64,000 nucleotides of DNA from an uncultured Verrucomicrobiae bacterium (GCA_963836755.1 CAWIKF010000001.1:544001-608000); one strand, 5' to 3'; numbered from the stretch's first letter, positions 5,764 through 64,000 are shown. Notes: generated from the letters alone by a model not told the origin. Made by a program: numbers and translations.

Positions 5764-7386
5764 CCGACACCAACCAAAAACAACTGGGCAAGACCCTCTG
5801 GAGCATCGCCGACCAACTGCGCGGGGCGATGAACGCGGACGATTTCCGCGATTACATGCTGTCGTTCCTGTTCCTGCGCTACCTCTCGGACAACTACGAG
5901 ACGGCGGCGAAGAAGGAACTGGGGCAGGATTACCCCGATGCTGACGCGACGGCAACGGCCGCAGTGCCGCTGGCGCTCTGGTATGCGAACAACCCGGACG
6001 ACGTCGCCGGCGTTCGAGAAGCAGATGCGGCGCAAGGTGCATTACGTCATCAAGCCCGAGCACCTCTGGACCAGCATCGCCAACATGGCCCGCACGCAGA
6101 ACGCCGAACTGCTCAACACGCTGCAGGCGGGCTTCAAGTACATCGAGAACGAATCCTTCCAGAGCACGTTTCAGGGCCTGTTCTCGGAGATCAATCTCGG
6201 CTCCGACAAGCTGGGCAAGACCTACGCCGACCGCAACGCCAAGCTCTGCATCGATCATCCAGAAGATCGCCGAAGGGCTTGGCGGAGTTCTCGACCGATA
6301 TCGACACGCTGGGCGACGCCTACGAGTACCTGATCGGCCAGTTCGCCGCCGGGTCCGGCAAGAAGGCGGGCGAGTTCTACACGCCGCAGCAGATCTCCGA
6401 CATCCTCTCGGCCATCGTCACGCTCGACAGCCAGGAACCGAAGACCGGCAAGAAGAAGCGGCTGGACAGCGTGATGGACTTCGCCTGCGGCTCCGGCTCG
6501 CTGCTGCTGAACGTGCGCAAGCGCATGGGGCCGCACGGCGATCGGCAAGATCTACGGGCAGGAAAAGAACATCACCACCTACAACCTCGCGCGCATGAAC
6601 ATGCTGCTGCACGGGGTGAAGGACACGGAGTTCGAAATCTACCACGGCGACACGCTGACCAACGACTGGGACATGCTGCGCGAGCCGAACCCGGCCAAGA
6701 AGCCGCAGCTTCGACGCCGTGGTCGCCAATCCGCCCTTCAGCTACCGCTGGGAGCCGACCGAGGCGATGGGCGACGACGTGCGGTTCAAGAACTACGGGC
6801 TCGCCCCCAAGTCCGCCGCCGACTTCGCCTTCCTGCTGCACGGCTTCCACTACCTGAAGGACGAAGGGGTGATGGCGATCATCCTGCCCCACGGCGTGCT
6901 GTTCCGCGGCGGCGCCGAGGAACGCATCCGCACCAAGCTGCTCAAGGACGGCCACATCGACACCGTCATCGGCCTGCCCGCGAACCTGTTCTACTCGACC
7001 GGCATCCCGGTCTGCATCCTCGTGCTGAAGAAGTGCAAGAAGCCGGACGACGTGCTGTTCATCAACGCCGCCGAGCACTTCGTGAAAGGGCAAGCGGCAG
7101 AACCAACTGACGCGACGAGCACATCGCGAAGATCATCGACACCTACCAGTACCGAAAGGAAGAGGATCGCTACTCCCGCCGCGTGGAGATGGAGGAGATC
7201 GAGAAGAACGACTTCAACCTGAACATCTCCCGCTACATCAGCACAGCGATAGGTGAAGAAGAGATCGACTTGGTAGAGACTCACAAAGAACTCGTGGAAA
7301 TCGAAGAAAAGGTCAAAGCTGCTGCAACCAAGCATAACCGGTTCCTCAAGGAGCTAGGCCTAGACCCGCTGCCCTTCGGCGATTAA
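5760..7386 (+). CDS. hsdM: Type I restriction-modification N6-adenine methyltransferase subunit M, frameshifted
   Basis: LWSIADQLRGAM, LGDAYEYLIGQFAAGSGKKAGEFYTP, DFACGSGSLL (SAM binding), VANPPFS (catalytic motif), NDFNLNISRYI. Confidence 0.92.
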
Positions 7387-7482
7387 ATCAGGGTGAGCGA
7401 TGGGTGGATTACCTTCCACGGTAAGAGACAAATGGTAGCCGAAAGATTGGACGCTTTTTCTTTTTTGCGAATAATCCGGCTG

Positions 7483-7498
7483 TGGCACGGCACGCGCT
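7483..7498 (+). promoter_or_regulatory. Possible sigma-54 (-24/-12) promoter upstream of the FN3 protein gene
   Basis: TGGCACG-GCAC-GCGCT has correct GG/GC spacing but lacks the TT of TTGC. Confidence 0.25.
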
Positions 7499-7553
7499 AG
7501 ATTCCCTGCTCCACTGCCAGTAAGGCAGTCTTTAAGGAAGGAGATTAAATATT

Positions 7554-8186
7554 ATGAGTAATTCAAATGTAGTGAAACCAGCAATTGGTTTCCTGAACCG
7601 CGATGGGCAAGCGCTCTACGCATCAAAGATCGGGACGGTGATGGAGAAGATGGCTGGCAATGTCAGCTTCACGGATCCTATCCCGTCGTTGAGCACGCTG
7701 CAGGCTTCGATCGACATCTACACACCTGCCGCAGCGAAAGCTGTGAAAGGTGGTGTGCAGGCAACCGTGGCGCGTGATGCGGCACGGGCAGACCTTACGG
7801 CCCTCGTGCTGCAGCTCGCCAACTATGTGAGCGCAACTGCAAACGGTGACCTGGAGACGCTGCTTTCGAGCGGTTTCCCCACGCAGAAGACGACGCGGAC
7901 ACCTGTGGGGCCTTTGCCCGCGCCGAATGCGCCGACGGTGTCGCAAGGGACGCGCTCTGGCTCATGCACTACGGTGACTGCGCCAGTGCGTGGCGCTTCC
8001 AGCTATAACTGGAGCGTGGCGCTGGAGTCGAAGCCGGATGAGGATGTGCAGACATCCCAGACGACTGGCGCACGGGCGGCCTTCGATGGCCTGGCCCCGG
8101 GCGTGGTATATGTTGTTTCTGTCAACGCAGTCGGCTCGGCCGGCGTGAGTGACTGGAGTGATTACGGAAGTTTGATGGTGATCTAA
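7554..8186 (+). CDS. Protein with N-terminal helical region and C-terminal fibronectin type III-like domain
   Basis: Strong RBS (AAGGAG) upstream. C-terminal GASSYNW...FDGLAPGVVYVVSVNAVGSAGVSDWSD is an FN3 signature. Confidence 0.75.
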   Translation: MSNSNVVKPAIGFLNRDGQALYASKIGTVMEKMAGNVSFTDPIPSLSTLQASIDIYTPAAAKAVKGGVQATVARDAARADLTALVLQLANYVSATANGDLETLLSSGFPTQKTTRTPVGPLPAPNAPTVSQGTRSGSCTTVTAPVRGASSYNWSVALESKPDEDVQTSQTTGARAAFDGLAPGVVYVVSVNAVGSAGVSDWSDYGSLMVI

Positions 8187-8220
8187 TAAGGTTGCGATTC
8201 AAGATGACGGAAGCCTTTGG

Positions 8221-8258
8221 AAGCGGCGCGTTCAGTGATGGACGCGCCGCTTTTCTTT
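8221..8258 (+). terminator. Rho-independent terminator
   Basis: AAGCGGCGCGTTCA-gtga-TGGACGCGCCGCTT followed by a T-rich tail. Confidence 0.75.
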
Positions 8259-8397
8259 AACGGAGAGGCGCTCCGGCTATTTCACCGGGATGATGTGACG
8301 AGGCACATGGGCGGGCACAAGCGCGCCGGCGCCAAACTTTTCCCATCCCAAACGATGCCGGCATTTGCGGTGGAGCGGAAATCGCGCATGGTAGCGG

Positions 8398-9093
8398 ATG
8401 CAAAAACCGCTGCTACTCGCTCTCGCGCTTTTTTCCATGCTTGCCGCACAGGCGCGCGCGGTCGAAAAGGAATACGTCGTCGTCACCGGCGGCGTTTCGC
8501 TTTACGAATGGGAAAAATTCAAGGCGCAGCCGCACGATCATTGGTGGGCGAACTTCATCCACGCATCGCGCGTTCGGCTCGAGCAGCTCCGGGCGCAGCT
8601 CGGCCCCGACGCGAAGATCACGTGGTTCGTTTACAAGGAAAGCTATCTCAAGCGCGGCAAACAGGAGGGGCGCGACTTGATCCCGTTGATCGAGTCGGTG
8701 CGCGACGCGACGCACGTGAATCTGCACTTTTTCACGAAGGCATCGGAACTCGTCGATTATCTGAATTTCGGCCAGGACCGGAATGCGGTGAAGATCGCGG
8801 ACTTCGAATACTTCGGGCACAGCAACAGGGCGTGCTTCATGTTTGACTACAGCGCGGAGCTCGACAGCGGCTCGAAATGCTGGCTTCACGAGACGGAGCT
8901 GACGCAGATCAAAAAGAGCGATTTCGACAGGGGAGCGTATGCGAAGAGCTGGGGCTGCCACACGGGGGAGGAGATGAGCGGCTACTGGCACAAGGCGACT
9001 GGCACGCGGATGATCGGCGCGATCGGGAGGACGGATTACTCGAACGAAGCCGCGGTGATGCTTTCCGATCCGAACGGGCGCTGGACGCAGTGA
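8398..9093 (+). CDS. Exported hypothetical protein, possible caspase-like His/Cys fold
   Basis: Signal peptide MQKPLLLALALFSMLAAQARA; motifs YFGHS and SWGCHTG. Confidence 0.65.
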   Translation: MQKPLLLALALFSMLAAQARAVEKEYVVVTGGVSLYEWEKFKAQPHDHWWANFIHASRVRLEQLRAQLGPDAKITWFVYKESYLKRGKQEGRDLIPLIESVRDATHVNLHFFTKASELVDYLNFGQDRNAVKIADFEYFGHSNRACFMFDYSAELDSGSKCWLHETELTQIKKSDFDRGAYAKSWGCHTGEEMSGYWHKATGTRMIGAIGRTDYSNEAAVMLSDPNGRWTQ

Positions 9094-9176
9094 CCGGTTA
9101 AACAGGGTTGCAGAAAAATGCGACAAAGCGTAAAAAAAAACTTGTCAGACTGGCACAAGAATATATTATTGTTTTC

Positions 9177-9380
9177 ATGAAAATGAGAATTTCCATAATC
9201 TGTCTCCTCGGCGCACTTGCAATTTCCAGCATCGGCTGCAGTGCCGTAAACGGCGATGAGAAGTCCCGCATGCGCAATACCAACCGCCAAGCGTATCGCA
9301 CGAGCCCCGAGCTCGCGCCCGTCGCCGAGCCGCCAAACACCGGCATGTCGTGGGGCGGCAGCTTGACGACACGGAATTGA
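9177..9380 (+). CDS. Small putative lipoprotein
   Basis: MKMRISIICLLGALAISSIGC, a lipobox-like signal. Confidence 0.5.
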   Translation: MKMRISIICLLGALAISSIGCSAVNGDEKSRMRNTNRQAYRTSPELAPVAEPPNTGMSWGGSLTTRN

Positions 9381-9506
9381 TTTCAGCGTAGCGGCCTCGC
9401 GTTTTCCCAAGCGCGCCGCTTTTGAAATCGGTTGTCGATGTTCATGATGAAAACATTGACCGGGCGAGGGGCAAAACTATAGTCGCGTGGCAAAACCACT
9501 ACGACT

Positions 9507-9982
9507 ATGGCATTACCCGTCGGCACCAAAGCACCCGATTTCACTCTCAAATCAAAGAACGACTCCGGCCTGGTAGACATCAGGCTCAGCGAGCAGCTCG
9601 CCGAAAAAAACGTCGTCCTGCTTTTTTTCCCGGCCGCCTTCACCGGCGTCTGCACGCAGGAGATGTGCGACATCTCGGCCGGCATGAACGCATGGCGCGA
9701 TCTCGACGCGTCGGTCATCGGCATCAGCGTCGACACGCCGTTTGCGCAGGAGGCGTGGGCGCAAAAAGAGAACATCACTTTCCCGCTCGCCAGTGACCTG
9801 AACAAAAAGGTGATCGCGGCCTACGATGTGGTTCTCGAGGATCTCGTCGGCATCGGCACGGCAGCAAAGCGCGCGGTTTTCTTGATCGATAAAAGCGGCG
9901 TCATCCAATACGCGGAGCAAACTCCGACGCCGAAGGATCTGCCGGACTTTGACGCGGTGAAAGCGAAGCTGGCGGAGTTGAA

Positions 9983-9986
<4 letters not shown>
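9507..9986 (+). CDS. Peroxiredoxin (AhpC/TSA family)
   Basis: [19 protein letters not shown] (PxxxTxxC), GISVD. Confidence 0.9.
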
Positions 9987-12841
<2,855 letters not shown>

Positions 12842-12843
12842 AC

Positions 12844-13656
12844 TTACGAGTCTGCAAGGATGCAATCGAGGATCTGGGTCAGGTCCTCGTTATGCTGCTG
12901 CGAGGCGATCCCAAAGGCGCTGACGATATCGAGGAGAAAATCCGCATTCTCTTTCGTGAATCGATAAGTCACCGTTTCCTTCGAATGGGCAGGGCCCGTC
13001 GGCCGAGGCCCACCTGCCGGCGTGCGCAACTCGGCCATGTTCAAACAGACGTAAATCATTGCCTGGTTTCCCACCGCGCGCTGCTTCGGCTTCAACTCGA
13101 TCTCGACACGGCCGTGCGCGTCTTCCTTCGAAAAAATTGGCACCTGCTCGACAGATTTTTCAAATCCGCCGGGCACGTCCTCATGCGCAGATTTTTCGAC
13201 CGTGATCTTTTCCTCGGTTTCGAGATTCGCGTCGTGCGAACGCGCGAGAAATGCGCGCGCGTGCAACAGTTGATCGCGGCTGATCAAGCCCAGTCGCAGC
13301 GCCTCGACGAGAATCTTTGCAAGCTCGATGCCATATTTTGTTTCGCCTTTTCGCTGAAAGCGAACTCCCGCAGCGACTGAAGGATGATGCGCGTCGAGCG
13401 AGTCGTAACCGATTTGCCACTCGAGAAAATCATCCGCATTGAGCGAAGTGTGCAGAGGCGAAACTGGAACGCTGAGGCCACCGGGATGCCGTTGCTTTAG
13501 CCGAACTTTTCCTGTGACGTCAGTGAGCGGAAGCCGCACCACGACTGCATCTCCAACTGTTTCGATGCGGACAGTTTTATAATCCGCATCTGCGCCGCGA
13601 GCGTTGATCGCGAGCGCGATGAGCAGCGCGCCGGCGAGATTCCTCAGCCGCGCCAC
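12844..13656 (-). CDS. R.PabI-family (HALFPIPE) restriction DNA glycosylase homologue with N-terminal signal peptide
   Basis: Collinear R.PabI-type motifs: VVVRLPLT, GKVRLK, LEWQIGYD, YGIELAKIL...GLIS, KQRAVGNQAMIYVC, AFGIASQQHNEDL. GTG start abuts the upstream TAG. Confidence 0.88.
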   Translation of the reverse strand: MARLRNLAGALLIALAINARGADADYKTVRIETVGDAVVVRLPLTDVTGKVRLKQRHPGGLSVPVSPLHTSLNADDFLEWQIGYDSLDAHHPSVAAGVRFQRKGETKYGIELAKILVEALRLGLISRDQLLHARAFLARSHDANLETEEKITVEKSAHEDVPGGFEKSVEQVPIFSKEDAHGRVEIELKPKQRAVGNQAMIYVCLNMAELRTPAGGPRPTGPAHSKETVTYRFTKENADFLLDIVSAFGIASQQHNEDLTQILDCILADS

Positions 13657-16095
13657 CTACTTGATCAACTGCTCCAGCGCCGTGTCGGCCTCCGCGCCGA
13701 GCCCGACGGCGCGCTTATAGTATTTGCTCGCCATTTCCTTGTTCGGGGGCTGCATCGTCGCGTAGATCACCGCGAGGTTGAAGTTCGCGTCGGCGTAATT
13801 TGGATCGAGCGCAATCGCAGTCTGCAATTCCTTGAGAGCCGCTTCCTGCCAGCCTTTTTGGCTCGCCGTGATGCCGAGATAATTGTGCGCGATCGCGTCC
13901 TTCGGCGTGATGGCCACGGCAGCCGTGAGCGCGGTAACCGCCTGGTCGTATTTCCCTTCCTGGTAATAAACGATGCCGAGCGTGCGATGGGAAAATGAAT
14001 CGCCGGGCGCGACCGCGATTGCTTTTTTAAACTTTTCCTCCGCGAGTTTCATTTTGTTCTGCCGGAAATCGACTACGCCGAGGTTGGACAAAATGTAAAC
14101 ATTGTTTGGCGCCTTCGTAAGCATCTGCTCATACGTTTTCTCCGCGTCGCGATATTGCCCACGATCGAACTGGTCCTTCGCATCGCGCGCCGCGCCGAGC
14201 AGATCGTCCGGAACGTTCGGGTTCGTCGACGTTTCCACCTGCGGAGGATTACCCGCGCCCGCGGCGGTTTTGTCGCCGCTGTCCGCGCCAGATTGCTGCG
14301 TGACTGCGGATGGCGATGGGTTCGCGCTTGCCAGGTCTGAATTCGGTGATGCTGCGGTGGAAGTCGGAGAGGCATGCGGCTTTGCAGAGTTTCCAGATGC
14401 TTCCGGTTTCGGTGCGGCGACGGAAAATTCCATGGCCGCCGAATCGGTGTCCGCGATTTCGATTTGCGGCTGTTTAAACAACGCCTTTTCCTTGTCTGTC
14501 AGCTTCACAACCGGCTGGCCGAGGTAATCGATTTCCTGCAGCAGCGTGCCCGAGCGGACCTGAAGCCCTTGAAGCTCGGAAAGCACGAGCTTTTTCGCCT
14601 GCTCGCGACGCGCCTGCTCCTTGAGCTGACGCACCACGATCCCGCGGAGCAACTCGTTTTCTTCTGTGTATTTTTTCTTTTCCTCGCTGCTCGCGCCGCT
14701 GGTTTGCATCGCCACCAATTCCGCCTTCGCGCCGTCGAGCTGCTTTTGCAAATTCGCCATCGAAGCTTGGTATCCGGCGCTTTGCTTTTGTGCCGAGGCG
14801 AGCAAGTCCTTCGTGTCGGTCACTTCTTTCCGCAGCGCCGCGATCTGCTGATCCTTTTCTGGCGCGCTGGCGTTAAAGTCGTGAATCGTCTTTTCTGCCT
14901 CGCCGAGTTTTCGCGAAAGCGTCGCGTTGTCTGCCATGAGCTGATCGACCTTTTTCTGCGCGTCACGCGCCTTTGCGAGATCGGCGAGAGCCTGATCACG
15001 CTGCTTCGCAATGCTGTCGCGTTCGGCGCTGACAGACGCGATCTGCGCCTGCGCCTCTGAAACTTTTTTGTTTAAATCATCCGATTCCTTGCGCGCCGCG
15101 TCGCGTTCCTTGCCGAGAACAGCGAGCTGTTTCTGCGCATCCGCGAGCTTCTTTGAAACTTCCTCGCTCGCGGCGTGCGTGAATTGATTTTCCTGCGTCA
15201 GCTTGCTGATTTGCGCTTTCGCGTCGGCCAGTTCCTGCGTCACTTTGGAAGCGTTCGCATATTTCGCTTCGAGGTCTTTCAATTTGTTCGCCGCGTCCTG
15301 CCGTTCCTGCTGCACGCTCGTTACGGTCTTGCGCACCTTCGACAAACGCCGCGCGTAATCGCTATTCACCGTGTCCGCCGCCTCGCGATCCGCCTGCGCG
15401 TCCTCGAGTTGATTCTGCAATTGCGCGATCTGCTTTTTCATCGCGTCGCTGTCGGCGCTGTTTCCGGGCGCATTGTTTTGCAAAGCCTGCTGCAGCTGTT
15501 GCAGCTTCGCCTTCAATTCCGCCACGCTTGTTCTATTTTGGACGAGCTGCTTGAGGGCTTCGCCAAGCTGCGCGGCCATCTTTTCCTTTTGCTGCTGCAC
15601 TGTCTGCAATTGCTGCCGCGAGTCGCGCAGATCATTTTGCAATTGATCGATGCGGCCCTTGATGTCGCTCGCCGCATCGTCCGTCCGCTGCGGCAATGGC
15701 TCAGTCGGCAGCGACGCGGTCGACTGCTCCTTTTGCGGCATCGGGACATCCGGCTCGACGACCGCGCCGCCGTTTCCGGATGCCTCTGGCGGTTGGTTGC
15801 CGACCTGCTGCTCGAGCCGCGCGATGCTTTCACTCGTGCGCTTTTTGCGATACTCGACGATCAGCGGTTGCCAGTTCGGATACTTTTGTCCGATTTGATC
15901 GAGCAACGTCGCGGCATAGCGATATTTCGCAAGCGCCGGTGCCGCGCGCCCGCTTTGCTCCAGACCCTCGCCCTGCTGCACTGCCATGTAGGCATTTAGA
16001 AAAAGATCCGATGGGTCGCTCGATTGCGCGCGGACTTTGCCCGGCGACCCGAGAGAAAAAACCAGCAAAGCGAGGAAAACCAGAATGCGCCGCAT
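13657..16095 (-). CDS. Exported coiled-coil protein with C-terminal TPR repeats
   Basis: Signal peptide MRRILVFLALLVFSL, long Q/K/A-rich heptads, TPRs (ILSNLGVV, SHRTLGIVYYQEGKYDQA, AHNYLGI, ANFNLAVIY). Confidence 0.85.
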   Translation of the reverse strand: MRRILVFLALLVFSLGSPGKVRAQSSDPSDLFLNAYMAVQQGEGLEQSGRAAPALAKYRYAATLLDQIGQKYPNWQPLIVEYRKKRTSESIARLEQQVGNQPPEASGNGGAVVEPDVPMPQKEQSTASLPTEPLPQRTDDAASDIKGRIDQLQNDLRDSRQQLQTVQQQKEKMAAQLGEALKQLVQNRTSVAELKAKLQQLQQALQNNAPGNSADSDAMKKQIAQLQNQLEDAQADREAADTVNSDYARRLSKVRKTVTSVQQERQDAANKLKDLEAKYANASKVTQELADAKAQISKLTQENQFTHAASEEVSKKLADAQKQLAVLGKERDAARKESDDLNKKVSEAQAQIASVSAERDSIAKQRDQALADLAKARDAQKKVDQLMADNATLSRKLGEAEKTIHDFNASAPEKDQQIAALRKEVTDTKDLLASAQKQSAGYQASMANLQKQLDGAKAELVAMQTSGASSEEKKKYTEENELLRGIVVRQLKEQARREQAKKLVLSELQGLQVRSGTLLQEIDYLGQPVVKLTDKEKALFKQPQIEIADTDSAAMEFSVAAPKPEASGNSAKPHASPTSTAASPNSDLASANPSPSAVTQQSGADSGDKTAAGAGNPPQVETSTNPNVPDDLLGAARDAKDQFDRGQYRDAEKTYEQMLTKAPNNVYILSNLGVVDFRQNKMKLAEEKFKKAIAVAPGDSFSHRTLGIVYYQEGKYDQAVTALTAAVAITPKDAIAHNYLGITASQKGWQEAALKELQTAIALDPNYADANFNLAVIYATMQPPNKEMASKYYKRAVGLGAEADTALEQLIK

Positions 16096-16247
16096 CGGAA
16101 AAGGTGACGACACTAGCTTAAGTCGCAGGGCGATGCAAACGATTCTCATCGCCGCGCAGCCCTTTATTCATGCGGGTTCCACAGCTTTCGCGGCAATTGA
16201 CACTTCCCGCGCCGAATGGTAGGTTGCCCGCAAATTTTCAAACCCAA

Positions 16248-16847
16248 ATGTTAGACCGGCAAGTCCTCGTCCTCAATCGACTCTGGCAGGCGGTCAATGT
16301 CTGCACCGTTCGCCGCGCCTTCACGCTTCTGTGTCAAGGCCACGCACAAGTCGTCTCCTCCGACGCGCAAAACAACTTTCTCACGCATGACTTTTCGAGC
16401 TGGCACGCGTTTTCGCAGCGCGAGCCCGAGGACGAGATGGTCCACACGATCTCGTTCAAAATCCGCATCCCCCGCGTGATCGTTCTTTTGCTTTTTGATC
16501 GCCTGCCGAAAAAGGAAGTCAAATTCACGAGGCACAATATTTTCGAGCGCGACAAAAACACCTGCCAATACTGCGGGCAGATTTTCGACCGCAAAGACCT
16601 CAACCTCGACCACGTCATCCCGCGCGAAAAAGGCGGCCTCACCACGTGGGAAAACATTGTTTGCTCCTGCATCCCGTGCAACACGCGCAAGGGAAACAAA
16701 CTTCCGCACCAGGCGCACATGCAGCTCATTCGCAAACCCGAGCGCCCGCGCTGGCGGCCGTTCCTGCATCTCACATTCCATGGGCATCACGAAAGTTGGC
16801 GGCACTTCATCGACCTCGCTTACTGGAACGTCGAGCTGGGCGATTAA
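16248..16847 (+). CDS. HNH endonuclease (McrA-like/HNH_5 family)
   Basis: VLVLN, FTRHNIFERDKNTCQYCG, LNLDHVIPREKGGLTTWENIVCSCIPCNTRKGN. Confidence 0.9.
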   Translation: MLDRQVLVLNRLWQAVNVCTVRRAFTLLCQGHAQVVSSDAQNNFLTHDFSSWHAFSQREPEDEMVHTISFKIRIPRVIVLLLFDRLPKKEVKFTRHNIFERDKNTCQYCGQIFDRKDLNLDHVIPREKGGLTTWENIVCSCIPCNTRKGNKLPHQAHMQLIRKPERPRWRPFLHLTFHGHHESWRHFIDLAYWNVELGD

Positions 16848-54816: not shown

Positions 54817-54847
54817 CCGAACACTAAACGGCCTGCGCCCGCTCGAG

Positions 54848-55423
54848 TCAAACAGCGTATGATGGCTCGTTGCCGGCGCGCCATTTGATGTTGCAGCCGA
54901 TGCTCGGCTTTTGCAGAACGTTAACGGGCTGTTGCGCGAGCGCGGCATCGATCGCAGCGCGCAGATCTGCGCCGGTCGGCGGATCTTGCCGCGGGCGCGT
55001 GTCGTCGAGCTGACCGCGATACACGAGTTTTCGGTTTTGATCGAAAAGGAAAAAGTCGGGCGTGCACGCGGCGCTATAACTTTTCGCCACCGCCTGGCTT
55101 TCGTCGTGACAATACGGAAATGAAAAGTGCATTTGCCGCGCGAGCGTTCTCATTTTTCCCGGCGAATCGTCGGGATGCGTCGTGACGTCGTTTGAGCTGA
55201 TGGCGACGACGCCGAGGCCGTCGGCGTAATCGCGCGCGATGCGGATCAATTCCTCGCGCACGTGGATGACGTAGGGACAGTGATTGCAGATGAACATCAC
55301 GAGCAGCGCTTTTTTTTCCGCAAAATCCGCGAGCGAAATGGTGCGACCGCTCGCAACGTCGGGCAGCGAAAAATCGGGCGCCGTCGTGCCGAGCGCGAGC
55401 ATCATGGAAGAAGTTTTGGACAT
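54848..55423 (-). CDS. Thioredoxin-fold (AhpC/TSA-like) protein
   Basis: MFICNHCPYV, AACTPDFFLF, YRGQLDD, PSIGCNIKW. Confidence 0.9.
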   Translation of the reverse strand: MSKTSSMMLALGTTAPDFSLPDVASGRTISLADFAEKKALLVMFICNHCPYVIHVREELIRIARDYADGLGVVAISSNDVTTHPDDSPGKMRTLARQMHFSFPYCHDESQAVAKSYSAACTPDFFLFDQNRKLVYRGQLDDTRPRQDPPTGADLRAAIDAALAQQPVNVLQKPSIGCNIKWRAGNEPSYAV

Positions 55424-55520
55424 GCGAGAAATGTTCCGCCGAAGCGTGCGGAATGTCGAGGCACGGGAAAACTTCCATTTTGCGGTTGCCTCGCGCGAGG
55501 GCATTTGCAGACTGCGAGCG

Positions 55521-55880
55521 ATGGAGACATTGCTGACCACGCCGACGAAGGACGAGCGCACATGGGCGATGGTCGCGCACTTGAGCGCGTTTTGCGGGCA
55601 CTTTATTCCGTTCGGACACATCGTCGGGCCGCTTCTGATCTGGATTTTGAAGAAAGATTCGCTCCCGCTGGTGAACGATCAGGGAAAGGAGGCGATGAAT
55701 TTTCAGATTACCTACACGATTTATTTCATTGTCGCCGGCGTGCTCTGCTTTGTTTTCATCGGTTGCATCATTCTGCCGATCATCTGGATCATCTATCTCA
55801 TCCTCATCATCATCGCGGCGGTGCGGGCGAATGAGGGAATCAGCTACCGCTATCCGGCGACGCTTCGGTTTCTTTGCTGA
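55521..55880 (+). CDS. DUF4870 membrane protein
   Basis: ERTWAMVAHLS, GPLLIWILKKD, GKEAMNFQIT, YRYP. Confidence 0.88.
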   Translation: METLLTTPTKDERTWAMVAHLSAFCGHFIPFGHIVGPLLIWILKKDSLPLVNDQGKEAMNFQITYTIYFIVAGVLCFVFIGCIILPIIWIIYLILIIIAAVRANEGISYRYPATLRFLC

Positions 55881-55965
55881 CGAAATTGGGCCTCGAATAA
55901 GGTCAGCTCGGACGCGCACCCCATAGCACGTCCGAGCCTTAACCCTAACCCAACAAAAACAGATT

Positions 55966-56001
55966 ACGTCAGCCGGCCTTCCGGCGCGCGTCTTTTTTTT
56001 T
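55966..56001 (+). terminator. Possible intrinsic terminator upstream of leuS
   Basis: ACG..GCCGG-cctt-CCGGC..CGT followed by T9. Confidence 0.5.
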
Positions 56002-56059
56002 GCGGATAAATACGCGCTTCCGCTGCGAGCATTCCGCGTCTATTTTTCCGACCCGCAAA

Positions 56060-58813
56060 ATGAGCGACCGCCGCAAACCGTATCCGTTTGACCGCATCGA
56101 CGCCCGCTGGCAGGCGCGGTGGGAAAGCGAGCAGACCTTTCACGCGCCGAATCCCGGCGAGCCCGGGTTCGATCCGACGCTGCCAAAATTCTACGTGCTC
56201 GATATGTTCCCGTATCCGAGCGGCGCGGGTCTCCACGTCGGCCATCCGATCGGCTACCTCGCGACAGACATCCTCGCGCGCTACAAAAAAATGCGCGGCT
56301 GCAACGTCATGCATCCGATGGGTTGGGATGCATTCGGTCTGCCCGCGGAGCAATACGCCATCAAGACGGGCCAGCATCCCGCGGTCACGACCGCGCGAAA
56401 CATTGCCGGCTTTAAGGGGCAGCTCCAGCGCATCGGGCTCGCGTATGATTGGGCGCGCGAGGTCAATACCACCGATTCGGGTTATCTTCGCTGGACGCAG
56501 TGGATCTTTTTGAAAATTTACGACTCGTGGTTTGATCCGGAGCAAAACAAAGCTCGTCCGATCTCCGAGCTGGTCGAGAATTTGAAATCAAAGTTCGCGG
56601 ATCCCGTTGAATTGCGCCGCGAAGTGGATGCCCACCGCCTCGCTTACGTCTCCGAGGCACCGGTAAATTGGTGCCCGGCCCTCGGCACCGTCCTCGCGAA
56701 CGAAGAAGTGATCGACGGCAAGAGCGAAGTCGGCGGCCATCCCGTCGAACGCCGACCGATGCGCCAGTGGATGCTTCGCATCACCGCTTATGCGCAGCGG
56801 CTGATCGACGAACTCGACGGCTTGGATTGGCCCGAAGGGATCAAACTTTTGCAAAAAAACTGGATTGGCCGCAGCGAAGGCGCCGAGGTTCGGTTTGAAA
56901 TCGATGTGGCTGCGCCGAAACCAGCAGGCGATGAGCCGGCTCTCCCCGGTATCCCGGTTTTCACCACGCGGCCCGACACTCTTTTCGGCGCGACCTACAT
57001 GGTGCTCGCGCCGGAGCATCGGCTCGTCGAGCAAATCAGCACCGAAGAACAATGGCCCGCTGTTCGCGACTACCGCGAGCGCACCGCGCGCAAGAGCGAC
57101 CTTGATCGCACCGAGCTGGCCAAGGAAAAAACCGGCGTCTTCACGGGCGGATCCGCGATTAACCCGGTCAACGGCGAGCGCATCCCGATCTGGATCGCCG
57201 ATTATGTCCTGCCCGGTTACGGCACCGGCGCGATCATGGCCGTCCCCGCGCACGACGAGCGCGATTGCGAATTTGCGAAAAAGTTCGACCTGCCTATCCG
57301 CGAAGTAGTCGCTCCCATCACATCCGCGCCCGTGACGACGAATCCCGAAAAGGCCTGTTTTGCCGGCGAGGGCGTTGCCATCAATTCCCAGATCCTCGAT
57401 GGCTTGCCCACGACCGAGGCCAAGAAACGCATCGCCGAATGGCTGGAAGAGCGCGGGCTTGGTAAAAAGACGATCAATTACAAATTGCGCGACTGGCTTT
57501 TCTCCCGCCAACGCTATTGGGGTGAGCCGTTTCCGATTGTCTGGGAAACCGGAGCCGATGGGCAGTTGCACCACCGCGCATTGGCGGAAACCGAGCTGCC
57601 GCTGCTCCCGCCGGAACTCGACGACTTCAAACCGACCGGCACGGGCGAGCCGCCGCTTGCGAAGGCGGTGGATTGGATTCGCTACTCCGACACCGCGACC
57701 CGCGAGACGAACACCATGCCGCAATGGGCCGGCTCGTGCTGGTATTACCTCCGCTATTGCGATCCGCGGAACGAGGCGCGCTTCGTCGGGGTCGAGGCTG
57801 AGCGATACTGGATGGGTGCTTTGGGTTCGAAACCCGGGAATTTGGATGCTGAGGGCCGGGCTATGGATTCAAAGTTTCAACCTGCGGGTTCAAATGTTCG
57901 ATCCTCGGATGCAAATCCTCATCCTGGCGGCGTCGATCTTTATGTCGGCGGGACCGAACACGCGGTGTTGCATCTCCTTTACGCCCGCTTTTGGCACAAA
58001 GTCCTCCACGATCTCGGCTACCTGAGCACGCGCGAGCCATTCCAGCGCCTCGTCAATCAAGGCCTAATCCTGGGCGAAGATGGGCAGAAGATGAGCAAGT
58101 CTCGCGGCAATGTGGTCAATCCCGACGACGTGATCGCCGAATACGGCGCGGATGCGTTCCGCTGTTATGAGATGTTTATGGGGCCGCTGGAGCAGATGAA
58201 GCCTTGGTCGATGACCGGCGTGGAGGGCGTGTCGAGGTTTCTCGCGCGCGTGTGGCGGCTGGTGATAGAGGAAAACCAGTCTGGCGAATGGGTGCTGTCG
58301 GCCGCCGTGCAAGATGCGCCGCTCGAGAAAGCGCAGTTGAAGGTGATGCACGCGGCGATCAAGAAGGTGACCGCGGACATCGAGGCGCTGAGTTTTAACA
58401 CGGCGATTTCGGAGTTGATGATCTATGTGAACGCGTTTGTGAACGCGCCGGTGAAGCCGTTGGCAGCATTGCGGACGCTGTTGGTGCTGCTGAATCCGTT
58501 CGCGCCGCATCTGACGGAGGAGCTTTGGGAGATTTTGGATTCGAAGTTCGCCGAGGCGAATCAAAGACCGTTGCTCTGCGAGCAAAAGTGGCCCGAGTGG
58601 GATGAAAGTTTCCTCGTGGAGGATGAAATCGACATACCGGTGCAGGTGAACGGCAAGCTGCGCGACAAAATTACCGTCAAAAAAGACGCAACCAACGCTG
58701 AAGTCGAAGCGCAGGCGCTTGCTGCACCAAAAATTGCCGAGCACACAGCCGGGAAAACCATCCGCAAAGTTGTGGTCGTCCGCGGCAAACTCGTCAACGT
58801 CGTCGCCGCCTAG
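56060..58813 (+). CDS. leuS: Leucine--tRNA ligase
   Basis: [14 protein letters not shown] (HIGH motif), FTTRPDT, SRQRYWG, KMSKS. Confidence 0.97.
57821..57925 (+). repeat. Five degenerate in-frame 21-bp units inside leuS
   Basis: ttgggttcgaaacccgggaat / ttggatgctgagggccgggct / atggattcaaagtttcaacct / gcgggttcaaatgttcgatcc / tcggatgcaaatcctcatcct. Confidence 0.6.
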
Positions 58814-59781
58814 CGGCGAAAGCGCCGCGCGAAACCTGCGAGCACCATGCAGCCCGCGGTGAGCTGAATCGCACTCGGCGGCTCGGGAATGACGGCGTTA
58901 ATCTGCGAGGCGTATTGCGAAAGGTCGGCCGCGGAAGTTTGATCGCCGAAGACGGATGACCCGGGCGGCTGTCCGCTGAAGCCACTCGTGGAGACGAGGA
59001 TGCCCGCGAGCTCCCAGCCGGAGCCGGTTTTGTAAAAAACCGCGCCGCCGGAGTCGCCGGGCGCGGCCTGCGCTTCGCCGGTGTTGTTGTCGAAGGTGGT
59101 GTAAAGAGTTTTCACCGTCCCGTAGCCGTCGTCGATCGTCGCAGTGCCGGTGAGATTGTTCGTCCCCCAGCGGAGCGCCTGTCCGCTTCCCTGTTTGTAA
59201 CCGTAGTAACTGTAATTGCTGCTCGTCGATTCGGTCCAGGTCCAGGGGCTCGTGGATTTGTCGACGCTCCAATAGGTGAGGAAGTCCGCGCGGTTGATGC
59301 CGTTGCCCATGAGAACGAGCGGCGCGTTTGCCGGCGGCGCCGTGCTGGCGATGGTGAGCGATGGGATTCCCGCAGGAATAGTGGTGAGCTGGAAAAGCGC
59401 GAGGTCGGTCGGCGTCCCATTGTTTGTCAGGCGGACGGCGGTGGAGGCGTTGACGGAATATGCGTTGCCGTCGAGCGATACGCCGCCAAAGGAGAAGCCC
59501 GTGCTGCTGGAGTTGTCCGAGCCGTTGCGCACTTCATGATACGCGCTGATCATCCAGCCGTTTCCGAGGTAGACGCCGCTGGTGTTGAAGCCGTCCTCGG
59601 AGTCGTAAACCAACCCGACGTTTTCAAAGCCGAAGTCATCCGCCGGAGCGGATGTGTAGGTGGCGTCGTTGTAAGTGCCACTGCCCGCCGCGTCCACCAC
59701 AGCAAACGCATGAGGCGCGAGCGCGGCGAGGCCTGCGATCCATAGCGACTTCTTAAAAAGCACCCGCAAAAAGTGCAGCAA
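58810..59781 (-). CDS. Trypsin-like serine protease with PEP-CTERM sorting signal
   Basis: ISAYH (His), TDLALF (Asp), GDSGG (Ser); ends VIPEP + hydrophobic stretch + RRFRR. Start uncertain. Confidence 0.85.
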
Positions 59782-59839
59782 AAGCTCGCGCGGTCAAGGG
59801 CGCTTTCGCCCCAAAATTAGCAAAACGTTGGGCCGTTTT

Positions 59840-59983
59840 CTAGACTCTTCGTCCCGTCACAAAGTGCAGGATAAAGACGATCAGCGCGATGACGAGGAGG
59901 AGGTGAATCAAACCTCCCGCAACATGCAAGGCAAAGCCGCCGCCCCAAAGAATCAACAGGATAATGGCAAGAATGAGTAACAT
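59840..59983 (-). CDS. lmo0937/DUF5670-family small membrane protein (47 aa; absent from the ORF track)
   Basis: MLLILAIILLILWGGGFALHVAGGLIHLLLVIALIVFILHFVTGRRV; GGAG RBS upstream. Confidence 0.85.
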   Translation of the reverse strand: MLLILAIILLILWGGGFALHVAGGLIHLLLVIALIVFILHFVTGRRV

Positions 59984-60007
59984 AATGGTCTCCTTTGTAT
60001 CTCGGTT

Positions 60008-60502
60008 TTATTTCGAAGCAGCCGCGACGTTGATGACTGATTTGGCGAGCTTCGACAACTTCTTGTCGGTCGCTGCTTCCTCGTTCAGCGTTTGCTGCAA
60101 AAGCTGTGCACCTTCCTTGTCCTTGAGCAAATCCGCATACGTGCGGACGCAGCCGTAGCCGGCTATTTCGTAATGCTCGACGCGCTGCGCGGCAGAAATC
60201 AGCCCGGCATCGCGCACTTCGTCGTCGCCTTCTTTTTCAATCATCTCCGCACCTTCTTCGAGCACACCTTCCATTCCCTTGCACTTCGGGCCGCGAGTGG
60301 TTTCGTCGTGGCTCTCGAGAATTTTTTCGAGGCGTGCGGCGTGTTCCTTCGTCTCCTCGAGGTGCATCTTGAAGCCTTCCGCGAGTTGCGGGTTTGAGGC
60401 CGCCTTGACCATCTTTGGCAGCGCCTTGATGATTTGCTTTTCAGCGCTGTAGAGGTCTTTGAGTTCGGTGACGTAAAGGTCTTTGAGGGTTTCTAACTCC
60501 AT
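60008..60502 (-). CDS. YciF/DUF892 ferritin-like stress protein
   Basis: LKDLYSAEKQ, HLEET, CKGMEG, AAQRVEHYEIAGYG. Confidence 0.92.
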   Translation of the reverse strand: MELETLKDLYVTELKDLYSAEKQIIKALPKMVKAASNPQLAEGFKMHLEETKEHAARLEKILESHDETTRGPKCKGMEGVLEEGAEMIEKEGDDEVRDAGLISAAQRVEHYEIAGYGCVRTYADLLKDKEGAQLLQQTLNEEAATDKKLSKLAKSVINVAAASK

Positions 60503-60611
60503 AAGTTTTGTTTTTTCGGTGGTGCTTGTTTTCTTTGTCGCCGCGCATTTTGGCGGCACAGACGATACGGAACGTTGTGTAAAAGCGGCTGTGTCGATTT
60601 TTTAAACATTG

Positions 60612-61529
60612 ATGGAATCTCCCGATGAAATGCATGCGACCTCGCGCCGCGGTCGCGAGCTGAGCGTGGTCGGTCGCTACGCATCGCGCTCGGCCGCTTA
60701 CGAACGCGCACTGGTGGTGCTCGCGATGGAAATTCCGCATTGGATCATCCGCGACAGCGGGACGTTTCAGCTCTGCGTCGAGCCGCCGCGCGCAGCCGCC
60801 GTGCTCGCGGAGCTGGAGAAATTTGAGCGCGAGCGCGTCGCCGACGCTGCGGCGCCGGAGCCGGTGGAAAAAACTTCCACGCACTCTCTTTTCGCCGCCG
60901 CGGCAGTGATGGCACTTTTCTTTGCGTTGCAAAACATCGGTCCCGCGTGGCTGGAAGATGCGGGTGCGAGCGACAGCGCGCGCGTGCTGCATGGCGAATG
61001 GTGGCGCGTGCTCACGGCGCTGACTTTGCACGCGGATTTTTCGCACATCGGCGCGAACCTTGCCGCCGGGCTCGTCCTCGCCGCGTTCCTGCTGCCGCTC
61101 TTCGGCGCCGGCTGGACTTGGCTCGGCATTTTGCTCAGCGGCGCGCTCGGCAACTGGCTCAACGCCTGGGGCCATCGCGGCGAAATGCAAAACTCGATCG
61201 GCTCATCGACTGCGGTCTTCGGCGCGCTCGGACTTTTGGTCAGCGCGCAAATCGTCTCGCGGATTTTCGCGCTACGAAAAATCTCCACGCGGGATGTGCT
61301 GCTGCCGCTCGGCGCGGCGCTCGCGCTGCTTGCGTATCTCGGCGTCGGCGATGCACAGACCGATTTCACCGCGCATTTTTTCGGGCTGCTCGCCGGCCTG
61401 CCGCTCGGTGCGGCGGCGCTCGCGCTGCGATTGAAACAGCGCACGCCGCCCGCGGCGCAACTTGCGCTCGGTCTCGCCGCGCCCGCGTTGCTCGTGCTCG
61501 CGTGGGCATTCGCAATCGCACACGCGTGA
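60612..61529 (+). CDS. Rhomboid-family intramembrane serine protease
   Basis: GEWWRVLTALTLH, HIGAN, IGSSTAVFG, AHFFG. Confidence 0.88.
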   Translation: MESPDEMHATSRRGRELSVVGRYASRSAAYERALVVLAMEIPHWIIRDSGTFQLCVEPPRAAAVLAELEKFERERVADAAAPEPVEKTSTHSLFAAAAVMALFFALQNIGPAWLEDAGASDSARVLHGEWWRVLTALTLHADFSHIGANLAAGLVLAAFLLPLFGAGWTWLGILLSGALGNWLNAWGHRGEMQNSIGSSTAVFGALGLLVSAQIVSRIFALRKISTRDVLLPLGAALALLAYLGVGDAQTDFTAHFFGLLAGLPLGAAALALRLKQRTPPAAQLALGLAAPALLVLAWAFAIAHA

Positions 61530-61570
61530 TTGCTTTCCGATCCGAGCTTCGTGCATTTTGACGCTCCCGC

Positions 61571-62626
61571 ATGGACACGCTCACGATCACCGAACTCCGC
61601 CGCGCAGCAATGGAAGGGCGAATCGAGGCAAAAATTCACGCGCAGATCGAGACGCTGACGCACAAGGAAACCAGCCAGCAAAAACCGTTTTGGGAACTGA
61701 ACCTCGCCGACGCGGAGGCGAAACTGAAGCTGCGCGCGTGGAGCGATTCACCAAATTATAAACAATGCGCGGAGCTCGACACCGGCGGGTTTTTAGAGAT
61801 CAGCGGCGACTTTTCCCACAACCCGAATTTCGGCATCGAGTCGAAACGCTGGACCTGCCGCGCGCTCGATGACGAAGAACGCGCCGCGCTGCTCGGCGGT
61901 CCGCGAGAGCTCCGCGAGCGGCAGGCGCGCGATTTTGGGTTCATTTCAAAAACCGCTGCGGCGCTCGCCGAGCCGCGTCTGCAGGCGCTTTGCGGACTTT
62001 TTCTCGAGCAGCACGGCGAACGATTCCGCCGCACCGCGGCCGCACGCGGGAATCACCACGCCCGCCGCGGCGGCCTGGTCGAGCACGTCGCGCAAATGAT
62101 GCGCGCCGCCAATGCGTTATCGGATGTTTATCCGCAGTTGAACCGCGAACTTTTACTCGCTGGGGTGCTTTTTCACGATTGCGGAAAGCTCTGGGAAAAT
62201 CCGGTCGCGGAAACAGGGTTTAACATGCCTTTTGTGGAAGCCGGCGAACTTTTAGGCCATATCACCATTGGGATCGAGCTCGTCAATTTGCTTTGGCGCA
62301 AACTCGATCTCGAGCAGTGGAGCGAGCTGCGGCCGGCATCGGAAGATGTCCGTCTGCACTTGCTGCACCTCATCGCGGCACATCACGGCGAGCTGCAATT
62401 TGGCTCGCCGGTGCCGCCAAAAACTCCCGAGGCGCAAGCGCTGCACTACATCGATAACCTCGACGCAAAAATGGAAATGTTCGCGCTCGCTTATGCGCGA
62501 CCTGCCACGCTCGGGCCACGGATTTTCGAACGCCTCTGGCCGCTGCCTGGCAACGAAATCGCGCCGCTGCAAAAACTTGGCGCGAGCGCGGATTCCGCGC
62601 GCAGCCAGCCTGCAGCCGGGATTTGA
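61571..62626 (+). CDS. OB-fold plus HD-domain 3'-5' exoribonuclease (YhaM/Cbf1 family)
   Basis: HHARRGGLVEH, LFHDCGK, GHI, HHGELQFGSP, DNLDAK. Confidence 0.88.
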   Translation: MDTLTITELRRAAMEGRIEAKIHAQIETLTHKETSQQKPFWELNLADAEAKLKLRAWSDSPNYKQCAELDTGGFLEISGDFSHNPNFGIESKRWTCRALDDEERAALLGGPRELRERQARDFGFISKTAAALAEPRLQALCGLFLEQHGERFRRTAAARGNHHARRGGLVEHVAQMMRAANALSDVYPQLNRELLLAGVLFHDCGKLWENPVAETGFNMPFVEAGELLGHITIGIELVNLLWRKLDLEQWSELRPASEDVRLHLLHLIAAHHGELQFGSPVPPKTPEAQALHYIDNLDAKMEMFALAYARPATLGPRIFERLWPLPGNEIAPLQKLGASADSARSQPAAGI

Positions 62627-62694
62627 CGCCGAGGCGGCACGCCAAAAAACGTGTTGGTTTCCGGCAAACTTTTGCTACTTTCTCCAGCCCGCAT

Positions 62695-62767
62695 GGTGGC
62701 CGTAGCTCAACGGTAGAGTCCCAGATTGTGATTCTGGTTGTTGCGGGTTCGAATCCCGTCGGCCACC
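62695..62767 (+). tRNA. tRNA-His (GTG) with G-1; no encoded CCA
   Basis: G-GTGGCCG...CGGCCAC-C; anticodon arm CCAGA-TTGTGAT-TCTGG; GTTCGAATC. Confidence 0.93.
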
Positions 62768-62774
62768 CACCTGT

Positions 62775-64000
62775 TTAACGATCGTTCAACCACTTTGCGG
62801 CGAGTTCTGTCACGCGGTTTTTCACCGCGTCGTCCATTTTTAAAAGCTCCGGCCACGTCCGGCTGTAACCTTCGCTCGGCAATTTCCGTGTCGCATCAAT
62901 GCCCATGTGCGTGCCGAGCGTCGCGACCGTTTGCGCATGATCGAGCGCGTCGGTCGGATTTTTTACAAAGCACGAATCGCGCTGTGGATCGGTGTTGGCG
63001 CACATCCGGAACAAAACTTCGCTCGTGTTGTGCACGTCGCAATCGTCATCGACGACGATGATATATTTGGAAAACATCATCAGCCCCGCGCCCCAAAGTG
63101 CGTGCATGATTTTGTAAGCCTGCCACGCGTATTGCTTGCGGATGCTGACAAACACAAGGTTGTGGAAGACTCCTTCCGCCGGCAGCGCGATGTCGATGAT
63201 CTCTGGGAAGTTCATTTTGAACACGGGCAGAAAAATCGCGACGGTCGCGCTGCCCATGTAAAAATCTTCCATCGGCGGAATGCCGACGATCGTCGCCGGA
63301 TAAACCGCGTTTTTTCGGTGTGTTAAACAGGTGAGATGGAAGACGGGATATTCATCGACCGGCGTGTAGAAACCGGTGTGATCGCCGAAAGGACCTTCCG
63401 CGCGCATCTCGCCGGGTTGCACGTAACCTTCTAAAACGAAATCGACATCCGCCGGCACCTCGATGTCGTTGGTTTCGCACTTCACCAGCTCGACGGATTT
63501 TTTTCTGCAAAACCCGGCAAACAAGATTTCATCGAGGCCGTCGGGCAATGGCGCGGTCGCGGCGAACGTGTAAGCGGGATCGCCTCCGAGCGTGACGGCG
63601 ACGGGCATGCGCTCGTTTTTTTCGTAGTAAACTTTGCCATGTCGCGCGCCGACTTTGTGGACCTGCCAATGCATGCCGGTTGTTTTCCCATCGTAAACTT
63701 GCATGCGATACATGCCGACGTTGCGCTCGCCGCTTTGCGGATCGCGCGTGTGAACGCACGGCAGCGTGATGAAACGTCCGCCGTCGCGCGGCCAGCATTT
63801 GAGGATCGGCAAATCATCGAGCGTCGTTTCTCCCGGTGAAAATTTCTGCACGACTTCCTTGCATGCACCGTCCTTGATGTGCTTCGGGCGCGCATGCAGG
63901 AGGTCGATTCCTTGTCTAACAAGTGACCACGCCTCGCGAAGTCCGGACGGCGGTTTCGCTTTCAAAATCAGCTGCATTTGCTGCGCAAGTTCGTCGATCG
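62775..64000 (-). CDS. UbiD-family decarboxylase (menaquinone/futalosine-type), 5' end beyond the window
   Basis: WPRDGGRFIT, NVGMYRMQ, EGPFGDHTGFY, IIVVDDD, MGIDATRK. Confidence 0.9.
   Translation of the reverse strand, partial: IDELAQQMQLILKAKPPSGLREAWSLVRQGIDLLHARPKHIKDGACKEVVQKFSPGETTLDDLPILKCWPRDGGRFITLPCVHTRDPQSGERNVGMYRMQVYDGKTTGMHWQVHKVGARHGKVYYEKNERMPVAVTLGGDPAYTFAATAPLPDGLDEILFAGFCRKKSVELVKCETNDIEVPADVDFVLEGYVQPGEMRAEGPFGDHTGFYTPVDEYPVFHLTCLTHRKNAVYPATIVGIPPMEDFYMGSATVAIFLPVFKMNFPEIIDIALPAEGVFHNLVFVSIRKQYAWQAYKIMHALWGAGLMMFSKYIIVVDDDCDVHNTSEVLFRMCANTDPQRDSCFVKNPTDALDHAQTVATLGTHMGIDATRKLPSEGYSRTWPELLKMDDAVKNRVTELAAKWLNDR

Follow-up and report, generated by a model that had tools for sequence, protein, structure and literature searches.

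The window and its PabI-family gene

The window analysed here is a 64,000-nucleotide stretch of the genome of an uncultured Verrucomicrobiae bacterium from soil (GCA_963836755.1 CAWIKF010000001.1:544001-608000). It carries a homologue of the PabI-family (HALFPIPE) GTAC adenine glycosylases on the minus strand at 12844-13656 (270 aa, GTG start), and it is nearly devoid of the tetranucleotide GTAC. An earlier sequence-only reading, made by eye, had reported that GTAC is missing from 7153 to 64000 and had attributed the absence to a resident glycosylase of this family. The manual scan was exact, as a program count over the 64,000 nt finds three GTAC, at 6138, 6326 and 7149, and none in the 56,848 bases from 7153 to 64000, a GTAC-free stretch that is one portion of a genome-wide near-absence. 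The second-order Markov expectation for this stretch is 73.0 sites (from 293 GTA, 246 TAC and 987 TA), and the expectation from independent bases, put at ~200 in the earlier estimate, computes to 210, with a Poisson probability of ~2e-32 for observing none. Dinucleotide-preserving shuffling of the whole window, repeated 100 times, gave 56 GTAC on average and never fewer than three. Related words are common, as had also been said: GTAA, GTAG, GTAT, ATAC, CTAC and TTAC each occur 68-115 times in the window, and CTAG is found 27 times, at 7497 and 16113 among other positions.

The host genome, labelled as a member of the Chthoniobacterales and referred to below as G000, comprises 3.18 Mb in four contigs at 58% GC. 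GTAC is observed 72 times where ~3,630 are expected (observed/expected ratio, O/E, 0.020), a frequency of 2.3e-5 per base. Both in the window and in the whole genome it lies far below the Markov expectation and is the lowest-ranked of the 256 4-mers, with O/E 0.033 in the window (runner-up CTAA, 0.40) and 0.020 genome-wide (next TTAG, 0.60). Runs free of GTAC extend up to 440 kb, and two contigs lack it altogether, C3 (99 kb; 111 expected) and C4 (57 kb; 58 expected).

The avoidance is implemented through context-dependent synonymous codon choice in all three codon phases, as seen in 1,583 long open reading frames (ORFs) taken genome-wide, a crude set that includes some spurious frames. Tyrosine following a G-ending codon is encoded by TAC 26 times and by TAT 1,778 times, as against 8,887 TAC and 5,210 TAT following other codons. 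The valine codon GTA precedes C only 13 times but precedes another base 3,479 times, and codons ending in GT precede ACN 10 times where those ending in GC do so 4,456 times.

The 72 residual sites are concentrated in a few places: 13 are in the single rRNA operon (eight in the 23S gene, four in the 16S gene and one in the spacer), 27 in a glycoside-hydrolase region, 19 in an island, three in a broken type I restriction-modification (R-M) system and three in one ORF, and seven are singletons. The island is of 52% GC and contains integrase, primase-polymerase, GmrSD, type ISP and NERD genes. The type I system lies in the window at 785-7222 on the plus strand, its hsdR, hsdS and hsdM genes each fragmented into several frames; all three GTAC of the window fall in the hsdM pieces, the local O/E is 0.36, and the system is probably acquired DNA in decay. 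A few singletons apart, GTAC has thus survived only at functionally fixed sites and in DNA that was probably acquired recently, a pattern that marks a purge still under way, specific to the site and acting with weak pressure on each copy. The three GTAC found in one ORF lie within 67 bp of each other (C2:778406-778472; L179 1407-1473), inside a frame of 875 aa that has no Pfam match, and the region is otherwise GTAC-free.

The PabI-family glycosylase posited by the sequence-only reading is indeed encoded in the window. By sequence, predicted fold and residues the protein is a member of the PabI/HALFPIPE family: it scores 56-58 bits against Pfam RE_R_Pab1 (curated cut-off 25), and in a phmmer search of the PDB it matches R.CcoLI (7cfa; E 1.5e-22, query residues 40-267 to chain residues 10-237) over the full catalytic length and R.PabI (2dvy) with E 2.2e-16. 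Its AlphaFold model (AF2; pLDDT 94.5, pTM 0.88) retrieved R.PabI or R.CcoLI as all of its top 16 Foldseek matches (3waz_B, E 3.4e-17 and TMt 0.85; 7cfa_A, TMt 0.80), the first match outside these two enzymes having an E value of only 0.02.

Catalytic residues have been given as Y68, H211 and D214 of R.PabI, corresponding to Y52, H222 and D225 of R.CcoLI, with K71 as the apurinic/apyrimidinic (AP) lyase lysine of the latter, and the bases of the site are described as contacted in R.CcoLI by K17, R19, E47, Q49 and Y168 (G), Q164 and M166 (T), and I50 and F215 (A) (PMC7806768). We mapped these positions by HMMER alignment against the residues listed in that paper, with a three-residue offset of the PDB-chain numbering taken from the alignment. 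The window protein retains the catalytic residues as Y84, H255 and D258 and the AP-lyase lysine as K107, and all nine base-contact residues are identical (K50, R52, E79, Q81, Y202, Q198, M200, I82 and F248). Of 81 homologue ORFs, 71 carry this 13-residue catalytic and recognition pattern unchanged; the tyrosine, lysine and aspartate are kept in every full-length homologue ORF, and the histidine is replaced once, by serine, in G002/L073. A specificity of the window enzyme for GTAC is thus a well-supported prediction from its conserved residues.

The enzyme begins with what resembles a Sec-type signal peptide (13591-13656, minus strand; codons 1 to ~22), composed of a basic n-region, a hydrophobic core and a small-residue cleavage motif. 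The motif, which places cleavage only approximately, lies just ahead of a conserved mature start, D/A-x-x-Y-K, and residues 2-19 are helical in the model. All six order-level homologues have the same basic, hydrophobic and small-residue N-terminus. A hydrophobic core (11-residue Kyte-Doolittle mean of at least 2.0) is present in 72 of 75 evaluable homologue ORFs, one of the remainder reaching 1.94 and two being cut by contig ends. On this heuristic reading, by eye and by hydropathy, the window enzyme and its whole clade are probably exported by a Sec-type route, and self-attack on the chromosome is consequently not the obvious route to GTAC loss.

A cognate GTAC methyltransferase was found neither beside the gene nor elsewhere in G000. 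The neighbours of the glycosylase gene are aconitase, a TPR protein and an HNH protein, with no methyltransferase beside it, and no DNA methylase was found among 92 scanned neighbour proteins of clade homologues. Family scans of G000 returned two broken pieces for PF01555, nothing for PF02086 and, for PF02384, a broken hsdM and a weak match that is an MmeI-type enzyme. An M.PabI-like query from a relative had no match in G000; in a separate search it recovered its source genome.

Distribution of the gene and of GTAC depletion

Relatives of the window enzyme are encoded in 253 stretches from species-representative genomes. The loci named here are 80 kept from among the 253, each consisting of the gene with up to 10 kb on each side, and come almost entirely from Verrucomicrobiota metagenome-assembled genomes (MAGs) labelled as Chthoniobacterales/Spartobacteria or Limisphaerales/Pedosphaera/subdivision 3, with completeness and taxonomy taken as stated in the records. 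Some records are titled Klebsiella, Bifidobacteriaceae, Akkermansia muciniphila or Methylomirabilota; they carry a Verrucomicrobiota-type locus that groups with Limisphaerales, and are probably mislabelled bins (L075, L076, L079, L084, L085, L087, L091, L092, L099, L124, L138 and others).

The clade is, to judge from its sequences and gene order, vertically inherited beside acnA in a housekeeping context, unlike mobile R-M systems. In a quick tree the homologues cluster by host order; L108, which contains a stop, was left out, the aberrantly long branch of L146 was disregarded, and two rows rest on guessed coordinates. The aconitase gene acnA, at 9983-12841 on the plus strand of the window, is convergent with the glycosylase gene and serves as a synteny anchor in many Limisphaerales and Chthoniobacterales loci. 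At least 12 scanned loci have a convergent aconitase gene downstream, and at least 12 have an RsmB/F-type methyltransferase directly downstream; upstream of clade homologues, in loci labelled as the two orders, lie genes for an M16 peptidase, PSD1 or a TPR protein. Viral contigs gave 50 pattern matches, none of which is a relative of the window enzyme. Carriers number six among 61 genomes of the order and 12 among 41 genomes of a Limisphaerales set.

We compared GTAC counts between carriers and non-carriers as raw counts among relatives that are not independent of one another, sampling ~20 kb per relative (some MAG contigs being short) and measuring 20 of the 40 relatives in the Limisphaerales set; five of the 80 named loci come from genomes that are also counted among the relatives. 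No GTAC at all is found in 68 of the 80 loci. For the 66 loci with an expectation of at least 8, O/E is below 0.1 in 59, 0.1-0.3 in one, 0.3-0.6 in four and 0.6 or more in two. Within the order, the carriers stand at 0.02 (G000), 0/28 (G001), 1/28 (G002), 0/30 (G021), ~0.24 pooled (G027) and ~0.80 (G055), and among 44 evaluable non-carriers five have O/E below 0.1 and the others range from 0.18 to 1.14, many of them at 0.2-0.5. All four intact carriers measured in Limisphaerales have O/E of at most 0.04 (1/23.7, 0/10.6, 0/6.9 and 0/8.5), and of ten non-carriers there two are below 0.1 (G459, 0.08; G464, 0/6.3) and eight lie at 0.13-0.90. The intermediate ratios of non-carriers look like slow recovery after loss of the gene. 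Depletion thus follows the PabI homologue in most cases, as in the 59 of 66 loci and the four carriers of the second order, but not in certain GTAC-free non-carriers or in G055, a carrier that is not depleted.

Gene copies that are split, truncated or reduced to a remnant were seen in three Limisphaerales genomes (G469 C255:11031-11830, G463 C128:24131-24715 and G479 C14:2100-2306), possibly representing loss in progress; the sample from the first of these is still GTAC-free (0/8.7).

A phylum-wide draw of high-quality genomes yielded a PabI-family match in 8 of 401, and seven of these are divergent enzymes that lack a signal peptide. Five of the seven have, adjacent, upstream and co-oriented, a gene of 380-420 aa whose product weakly matches methylase families of Pfam (N6_Mtase/Eco57I in four, and in G329 only a sub-threshold generic methyltransferase hit), and the remaining two have an upstream gene of similar size with no Pfam match. 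We read the signal-less homologues, from their sequences and gene order, as classical methylase-restriction enzyme (M-R) pairs. Depletion is lacking in five of these seven genomes (0.59-1.02) and present in the two species of genus g84 (0.04 and 0.08). The contrast between the classical pairs and the clade indicates that depletion accompanies PabI-type enzymes that have long been resident, above all those of the methylase-less, apparently exported clade.

Explanations for the loss of GTAC

Our preferred reading, to which we assign a probability of roughly 0.58, is that GTAC was removed, and continues to be removed, in association with a methylase-less, signal-peptide-bearing PabI-family glycosylase, and that this clade is the cause in G000. 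The enzyme would be exported to the periplasm or cell envelope, where it would act as a GTAC glycosylase/AP lyase; a 2023 review describes the family as having no divalent-cation requirement, which would suit an enzyme active beyond the cytoplasm. Incoming DNA that contains GTAC would be destroyed, the cell's own DNA would be immune through absence of the site and not through methylation, and the chromosome would be kept GTAC-free by weak but persistent selection at each site. Such selection could arise by two routes. In the one we slightly favour, resident DNA would occasionally be exposed to unexported or leaked enzyme, giving a very weak per-site selection that in large populations would be enough for neutral sites but not for rDNA. 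In the other, GTAC-bearing alleles would be preferentially destroyed during uptake of DNA from kin, a form of drive. The persistence of the 13 constrained sites of the rRNA operon, with freely changeable sites essentially gone, fits a weak per-site pressure.

The second route can be taken further, tentatively, into a negative uptake signal, in which a periplasmic, cofactor-independent GTAC glycosylase would filter incoming double-stranded DNA so that self and kin DNA pass without an epigenetic mark, and in which the filter itself might drive the depletion. GTAC alleles would not be transmissible by transformation and would be overwritten by GTAC-free ones, a mirror image of the enrichment of uptake sequences in Neisseria and Haemophilus. 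Such a filter would explain the methylase-less state, the coexistence with Ku, and the confinement of the remaining GTAC to constrained rDNA and to DNA that probably came in without passing through the periplasm, for example on integrative or conjugative elements. ComEC is present in G000, which is weak evidence for competence.

Several observations weigh against the glycosylase as the cause. The chromosome should be out of reach of an exported enzyme, and 13 GTAC persist in rDNA with no GTAC methylase found, so that exposure of the chromosome would be at most slight. PabI systems and Ku are mutually exclusive according to the 2023 review, but G000 has an intact Ku gene (C2:1372520-1373059) coexisting with its PabI-family enzyme. 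Three relatives, G024 (98% complete), G043 (100%) and G057 (98%), are equally free of GTAC (1/58, 0/39 and 0/69.5) and have no PabI homologue detectable by protein query, by PF09522 or by a profile search with E up to 10; nor did a query search find an M.PabI-like gene in them. Their acnA loci (L181, L182 and L183, respectively) contain no remnant of the gene, being occupied by an unrelated methyltransferase in G024, a PDDEXK_3 protein with small ORFs in G043 and small ORFs in G057. G043 and G057 are species of one genus, g36, that differ at 9-26% of four-fold sites, and on neutral four-fold change alone 9-26 and 6-18 new GTAC would be expected in their samples, where none was seen; the purge in g36 has evidently remained active since the species split, and the missing gains imply that an agent other than a PabI gene is at work there. 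A fourth non-carrier, G005, is ambiguous, as it is 87% complete and its acnA lies at a contig end. Conversely, G055 has an apparently intact signal-peptide copy yet an O/E of ~0.8. The refutation envisaged by the sequence-only reading was thus partly realised: the count is nowhere near expectation, but relatives with no detectable PabI gene are just as depleted. Its proposal of long-term selection by the resident glycosylase is supported as regards the gene, its residues and the co-occurrence, and is weakened by the export signal, by these relatives and by G055.

The G055 copy (L145) lies outside the acnA synteny, with an N6_N4 DNA methylase in three frames directly downstream (10915-11662) and a DDE transposase 2 kb beyond. 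Three of eight relaxed exceptions (L109, L116 and L145) share one five-member Chthoniobacterales subclade, in which the guanine-contacting lysine is replaced in four of the five members; GTAC occurs within the PabI-type gene in six of the eight exceptions.

These same observations are grounds for supposing that some other GTAC-specific agent, a nuclease of a different family or an outside pressure such as phage-encoded enzymes, does the purging. The exported PabI-type enzyme would then benefit from the purge or be carried along with it: only in a genome already free of GTAC could it be retained with no methylase and serve against foreign DNA. This explanation is favoured by the GTAC-free genomes that lack a homologue (G024, G043 and G057, perhaps also G005 and G037), by the active purge in g36 and the low ratios of the Limisphaerales non-carriers G459 and G464, and by an exported enzyme with no obvious access to the chromosome and a carrier, G055, that is not depleted. 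We nevertheless consider it unlikely, as the co-occurrence of the clade with near-zero GTAC is very tight, as an independent link between PabI systems and avoidance of GTAC exists in Helicobacter, according to the literature, and in genus g84, and as some of the non-carrier MAGs may be incomplete. No candidate for the agent was found, either. A C5-methylase at C2:94106-95281 occurs also in the non-depleted G006, G007, G011 and G015 and was not found in the depleted G001, G002, G021 and G024; its 390-aa neighbour is near-universal (52 of 61 relatives); and the HNH gene of the window, present in 56 of 61 relatives, does not track depletion.

That the depletion is a relic, in which an ancestral classical PabI R-M system drove avoidance and later lost its methylase, with no present maintenance, seems improbable. 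Classical M-R pairs do exist in the phylum, one genus bearing them is depleted, and the many non-carriers of the order at O/E 0.2-0.5 resemble slow recovery. But carriers whose enzymes have diverged to 46-59% identity are all at or near zero, a state that would have decayed if unmaintained: the window alone expects 8-23 new GTAC at four-fold sites for divergences of 0.045-0.13. The functional residues, moreover, are strongly conserved. Hardly credible, finally, is a bias of mutation or repair, for example Vsr-type very-short-patch repair with a cytosine methylase, or of codon usage or composition. G000 does have C5-methylases and two Vsr genes, and CTAG and related words are mildly depleted in it (O/E 0.6), as in many bacteria, yet a GTAC ratio of 0.02 is an order of magnitude past the next word, the expectation is already conditioned on the GTA, TAC and TA counts, and the avoidance is site-specific in all three codon phases. 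The one intact Vsr/methylase pair is on a low-GC stretch by a type IV secretion system (T4SS) coupling protein, the methylase of the other pair is broken, and the one C5-methylase tested does not track depletion. A Vsr-type bias is unlikely also because GCAC and GTGC, the T-to-C products of GTAC, are not enriched in G000 (O/E 0.97).

Known systems and neighbouring genes

The window enzyme shares its family, the HALFPIPE fold, as modelled, and the catalytic and contact residues, as aligned, with the known PabI systems: R.PabI from Pyrococcus abyssi, R.HpyAXII from Helicobacter pylori and R.CcoLI from Campylobacter coli. These systems are described as inherited over the long term at an orthologous locus and as accompanied by strong avoidance of GTAC in the host, as in Helicobacter and Campylobacter (PMC10273834, PMC4615327), and both features are shared by the window clade. 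The differences are considerable. An adenine methylase adjoins almost all homologues in the account of Kojima and Kobayashi 2015, the available part of which does not mention Verrucomicrobia; the classical systems have an adjacent gamma-type adenine methyltransferase, whereas none was found for the window clade. Classical homologues of the Verrucomicrobiota have no signal peptide, and the clade has a conserved Sec-type one, so that it departs, by prediction, from the cytoplasmic location of the classical enzymes, which act on DNA within the cell. The hosts named in the 2023 review are only Helicobacteraceae/Campylobacteraceae and a few hyperthermophilic archaea, as against the phylum Verrucomicrobiota here. 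Depletion is also stronger in G000 than in H. pylori, for which a classification rule is bounded at 5.6-42.8e-5 GTAC per base (PMC4673791).

Mobile type II R-M systems are linked with mobility, vary in location and are inserted among host genes, while the window clade keeps its housekeeping synteny and is absent from the viral contigs searched, the G055 copy being the exception. Site avoidance is reported to depend on the lifespan of an R-M system, long-resident systems being accompanied by it and recently acquired ones not (Rusinov et al. 2015, PMC4687349). Our data match this pattern, with classical M-R pairs in five non-depleted genomes set against an old, syntenic clade; but O/E values of 0.00-0.02 are far stronger than its cases, and the window system is methylase-less and apparently exported.

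The proposed self-protection by absence of the target, with no cognate methylase, recalls PacI of Pseudomonas alcaligenes, a solitary enzyme whose host is stated to lack its site (Ershova et al. 2012, PMC3488263). In a GC-rich genome absence of the PacI site needs little or no selection, whereas in G000 ~3,600 expected copies of a 4-base word have been removed, and G000, unlike the PacI host, still retains 72 sites, 13 of them in rDNA. The site of PacI is an AT-rich one of eight bases, and to our knowledge that enzyme has not been reported as exported. Compartment separation replaces methylation in EndA of E. coli and Dns of Vibrio cholerae, periplasmic or extracellular nucleases that limit natural transformation. 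An exported DNA-degrading enzyme that meets incoming DNA before the cytoplasm is what the window protein, with its predicted export, may resemble; but EndA and Dns are sequence-nonspecific phosphodiesterases that are not known to be linked to avoidance of a word by the host.

Neither GTAC avoidance in Verrucomicrobiota nor a PabI/HALFPIPE enzyme with a signal peptide was the subject of any paper that turned up in literature searches, although the supplementary homologue lists of Kojima 2015 could hold Verrucomicrobial entries. The loss of GTAC reported here is the most complete loss of a short palindrome that we found described, at O/E 0.00-0.02 in 3-8-Mb genomes of two orders of abundant soil and freshwater bacteria, and its price is a genome-wide, context-dependent choice of codons. 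The PabI family is wider than described, with at least 253 stretches encoding what appears to be a methylase-less, exported and vertically inherited form that does not fit the picture of selfish, mobile R-M systems. An old question, whether self and foreign DNA can be told apart by the absence of a word and not by methylation, is now testable; if they can, the word would have been removed by self-damage or by an uptake filter. On the practical side, vectors lacking GTAC are worth trying in those Verrucomicrobiota that are genetically intractable, the density of GTAC points to recent acquisitions in depleted genomes, and the intermediate O/E that follows gene loss may serve as a clock for the time since loss.

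Three further loci of G000 contain genes that act on DNA. L206 (C2:804000-815000), at 50% GC, encodes a C5-methylase, Vsr, a GHKL-ATPase protein and a T4SS coupling protein. L208 (C2:1822000-1829000) has a broken C5-methylase with Vsr. L207 (C2:696000-706000) has an intact MmeI-type enzyme of 1,088 aa (~C2:698-701 kb), a family whose sites we take to be longer and asymmetric.

Immediately upstream of the glycosylase gene, at 13657-16149 on the minus strand, lies the gene for a second probably exported protein, of 830 aa, in which a signal peptide is followed by a long coiled coil and, at the C-terminus, by TPR repeats. The TAG stop codon of this gene directly adjoins the GTG with which the glycosylase gene begins, and the pair is therefore probably co-transcribed; a TPR gene is likewise upstream in G002 (L073) and G027 (L109). 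Divergent from this pair, on the plus strand at 16170-16847, is the gene for the HNH endonuclease (HNH_5), whose closest copies in the relatives are 66-91% identical and which is found even in genomes of 0.9 Mb, the size of an endosymbiont's; being near-universal, even there, it is best regarded as a housekeeping HNH gene.

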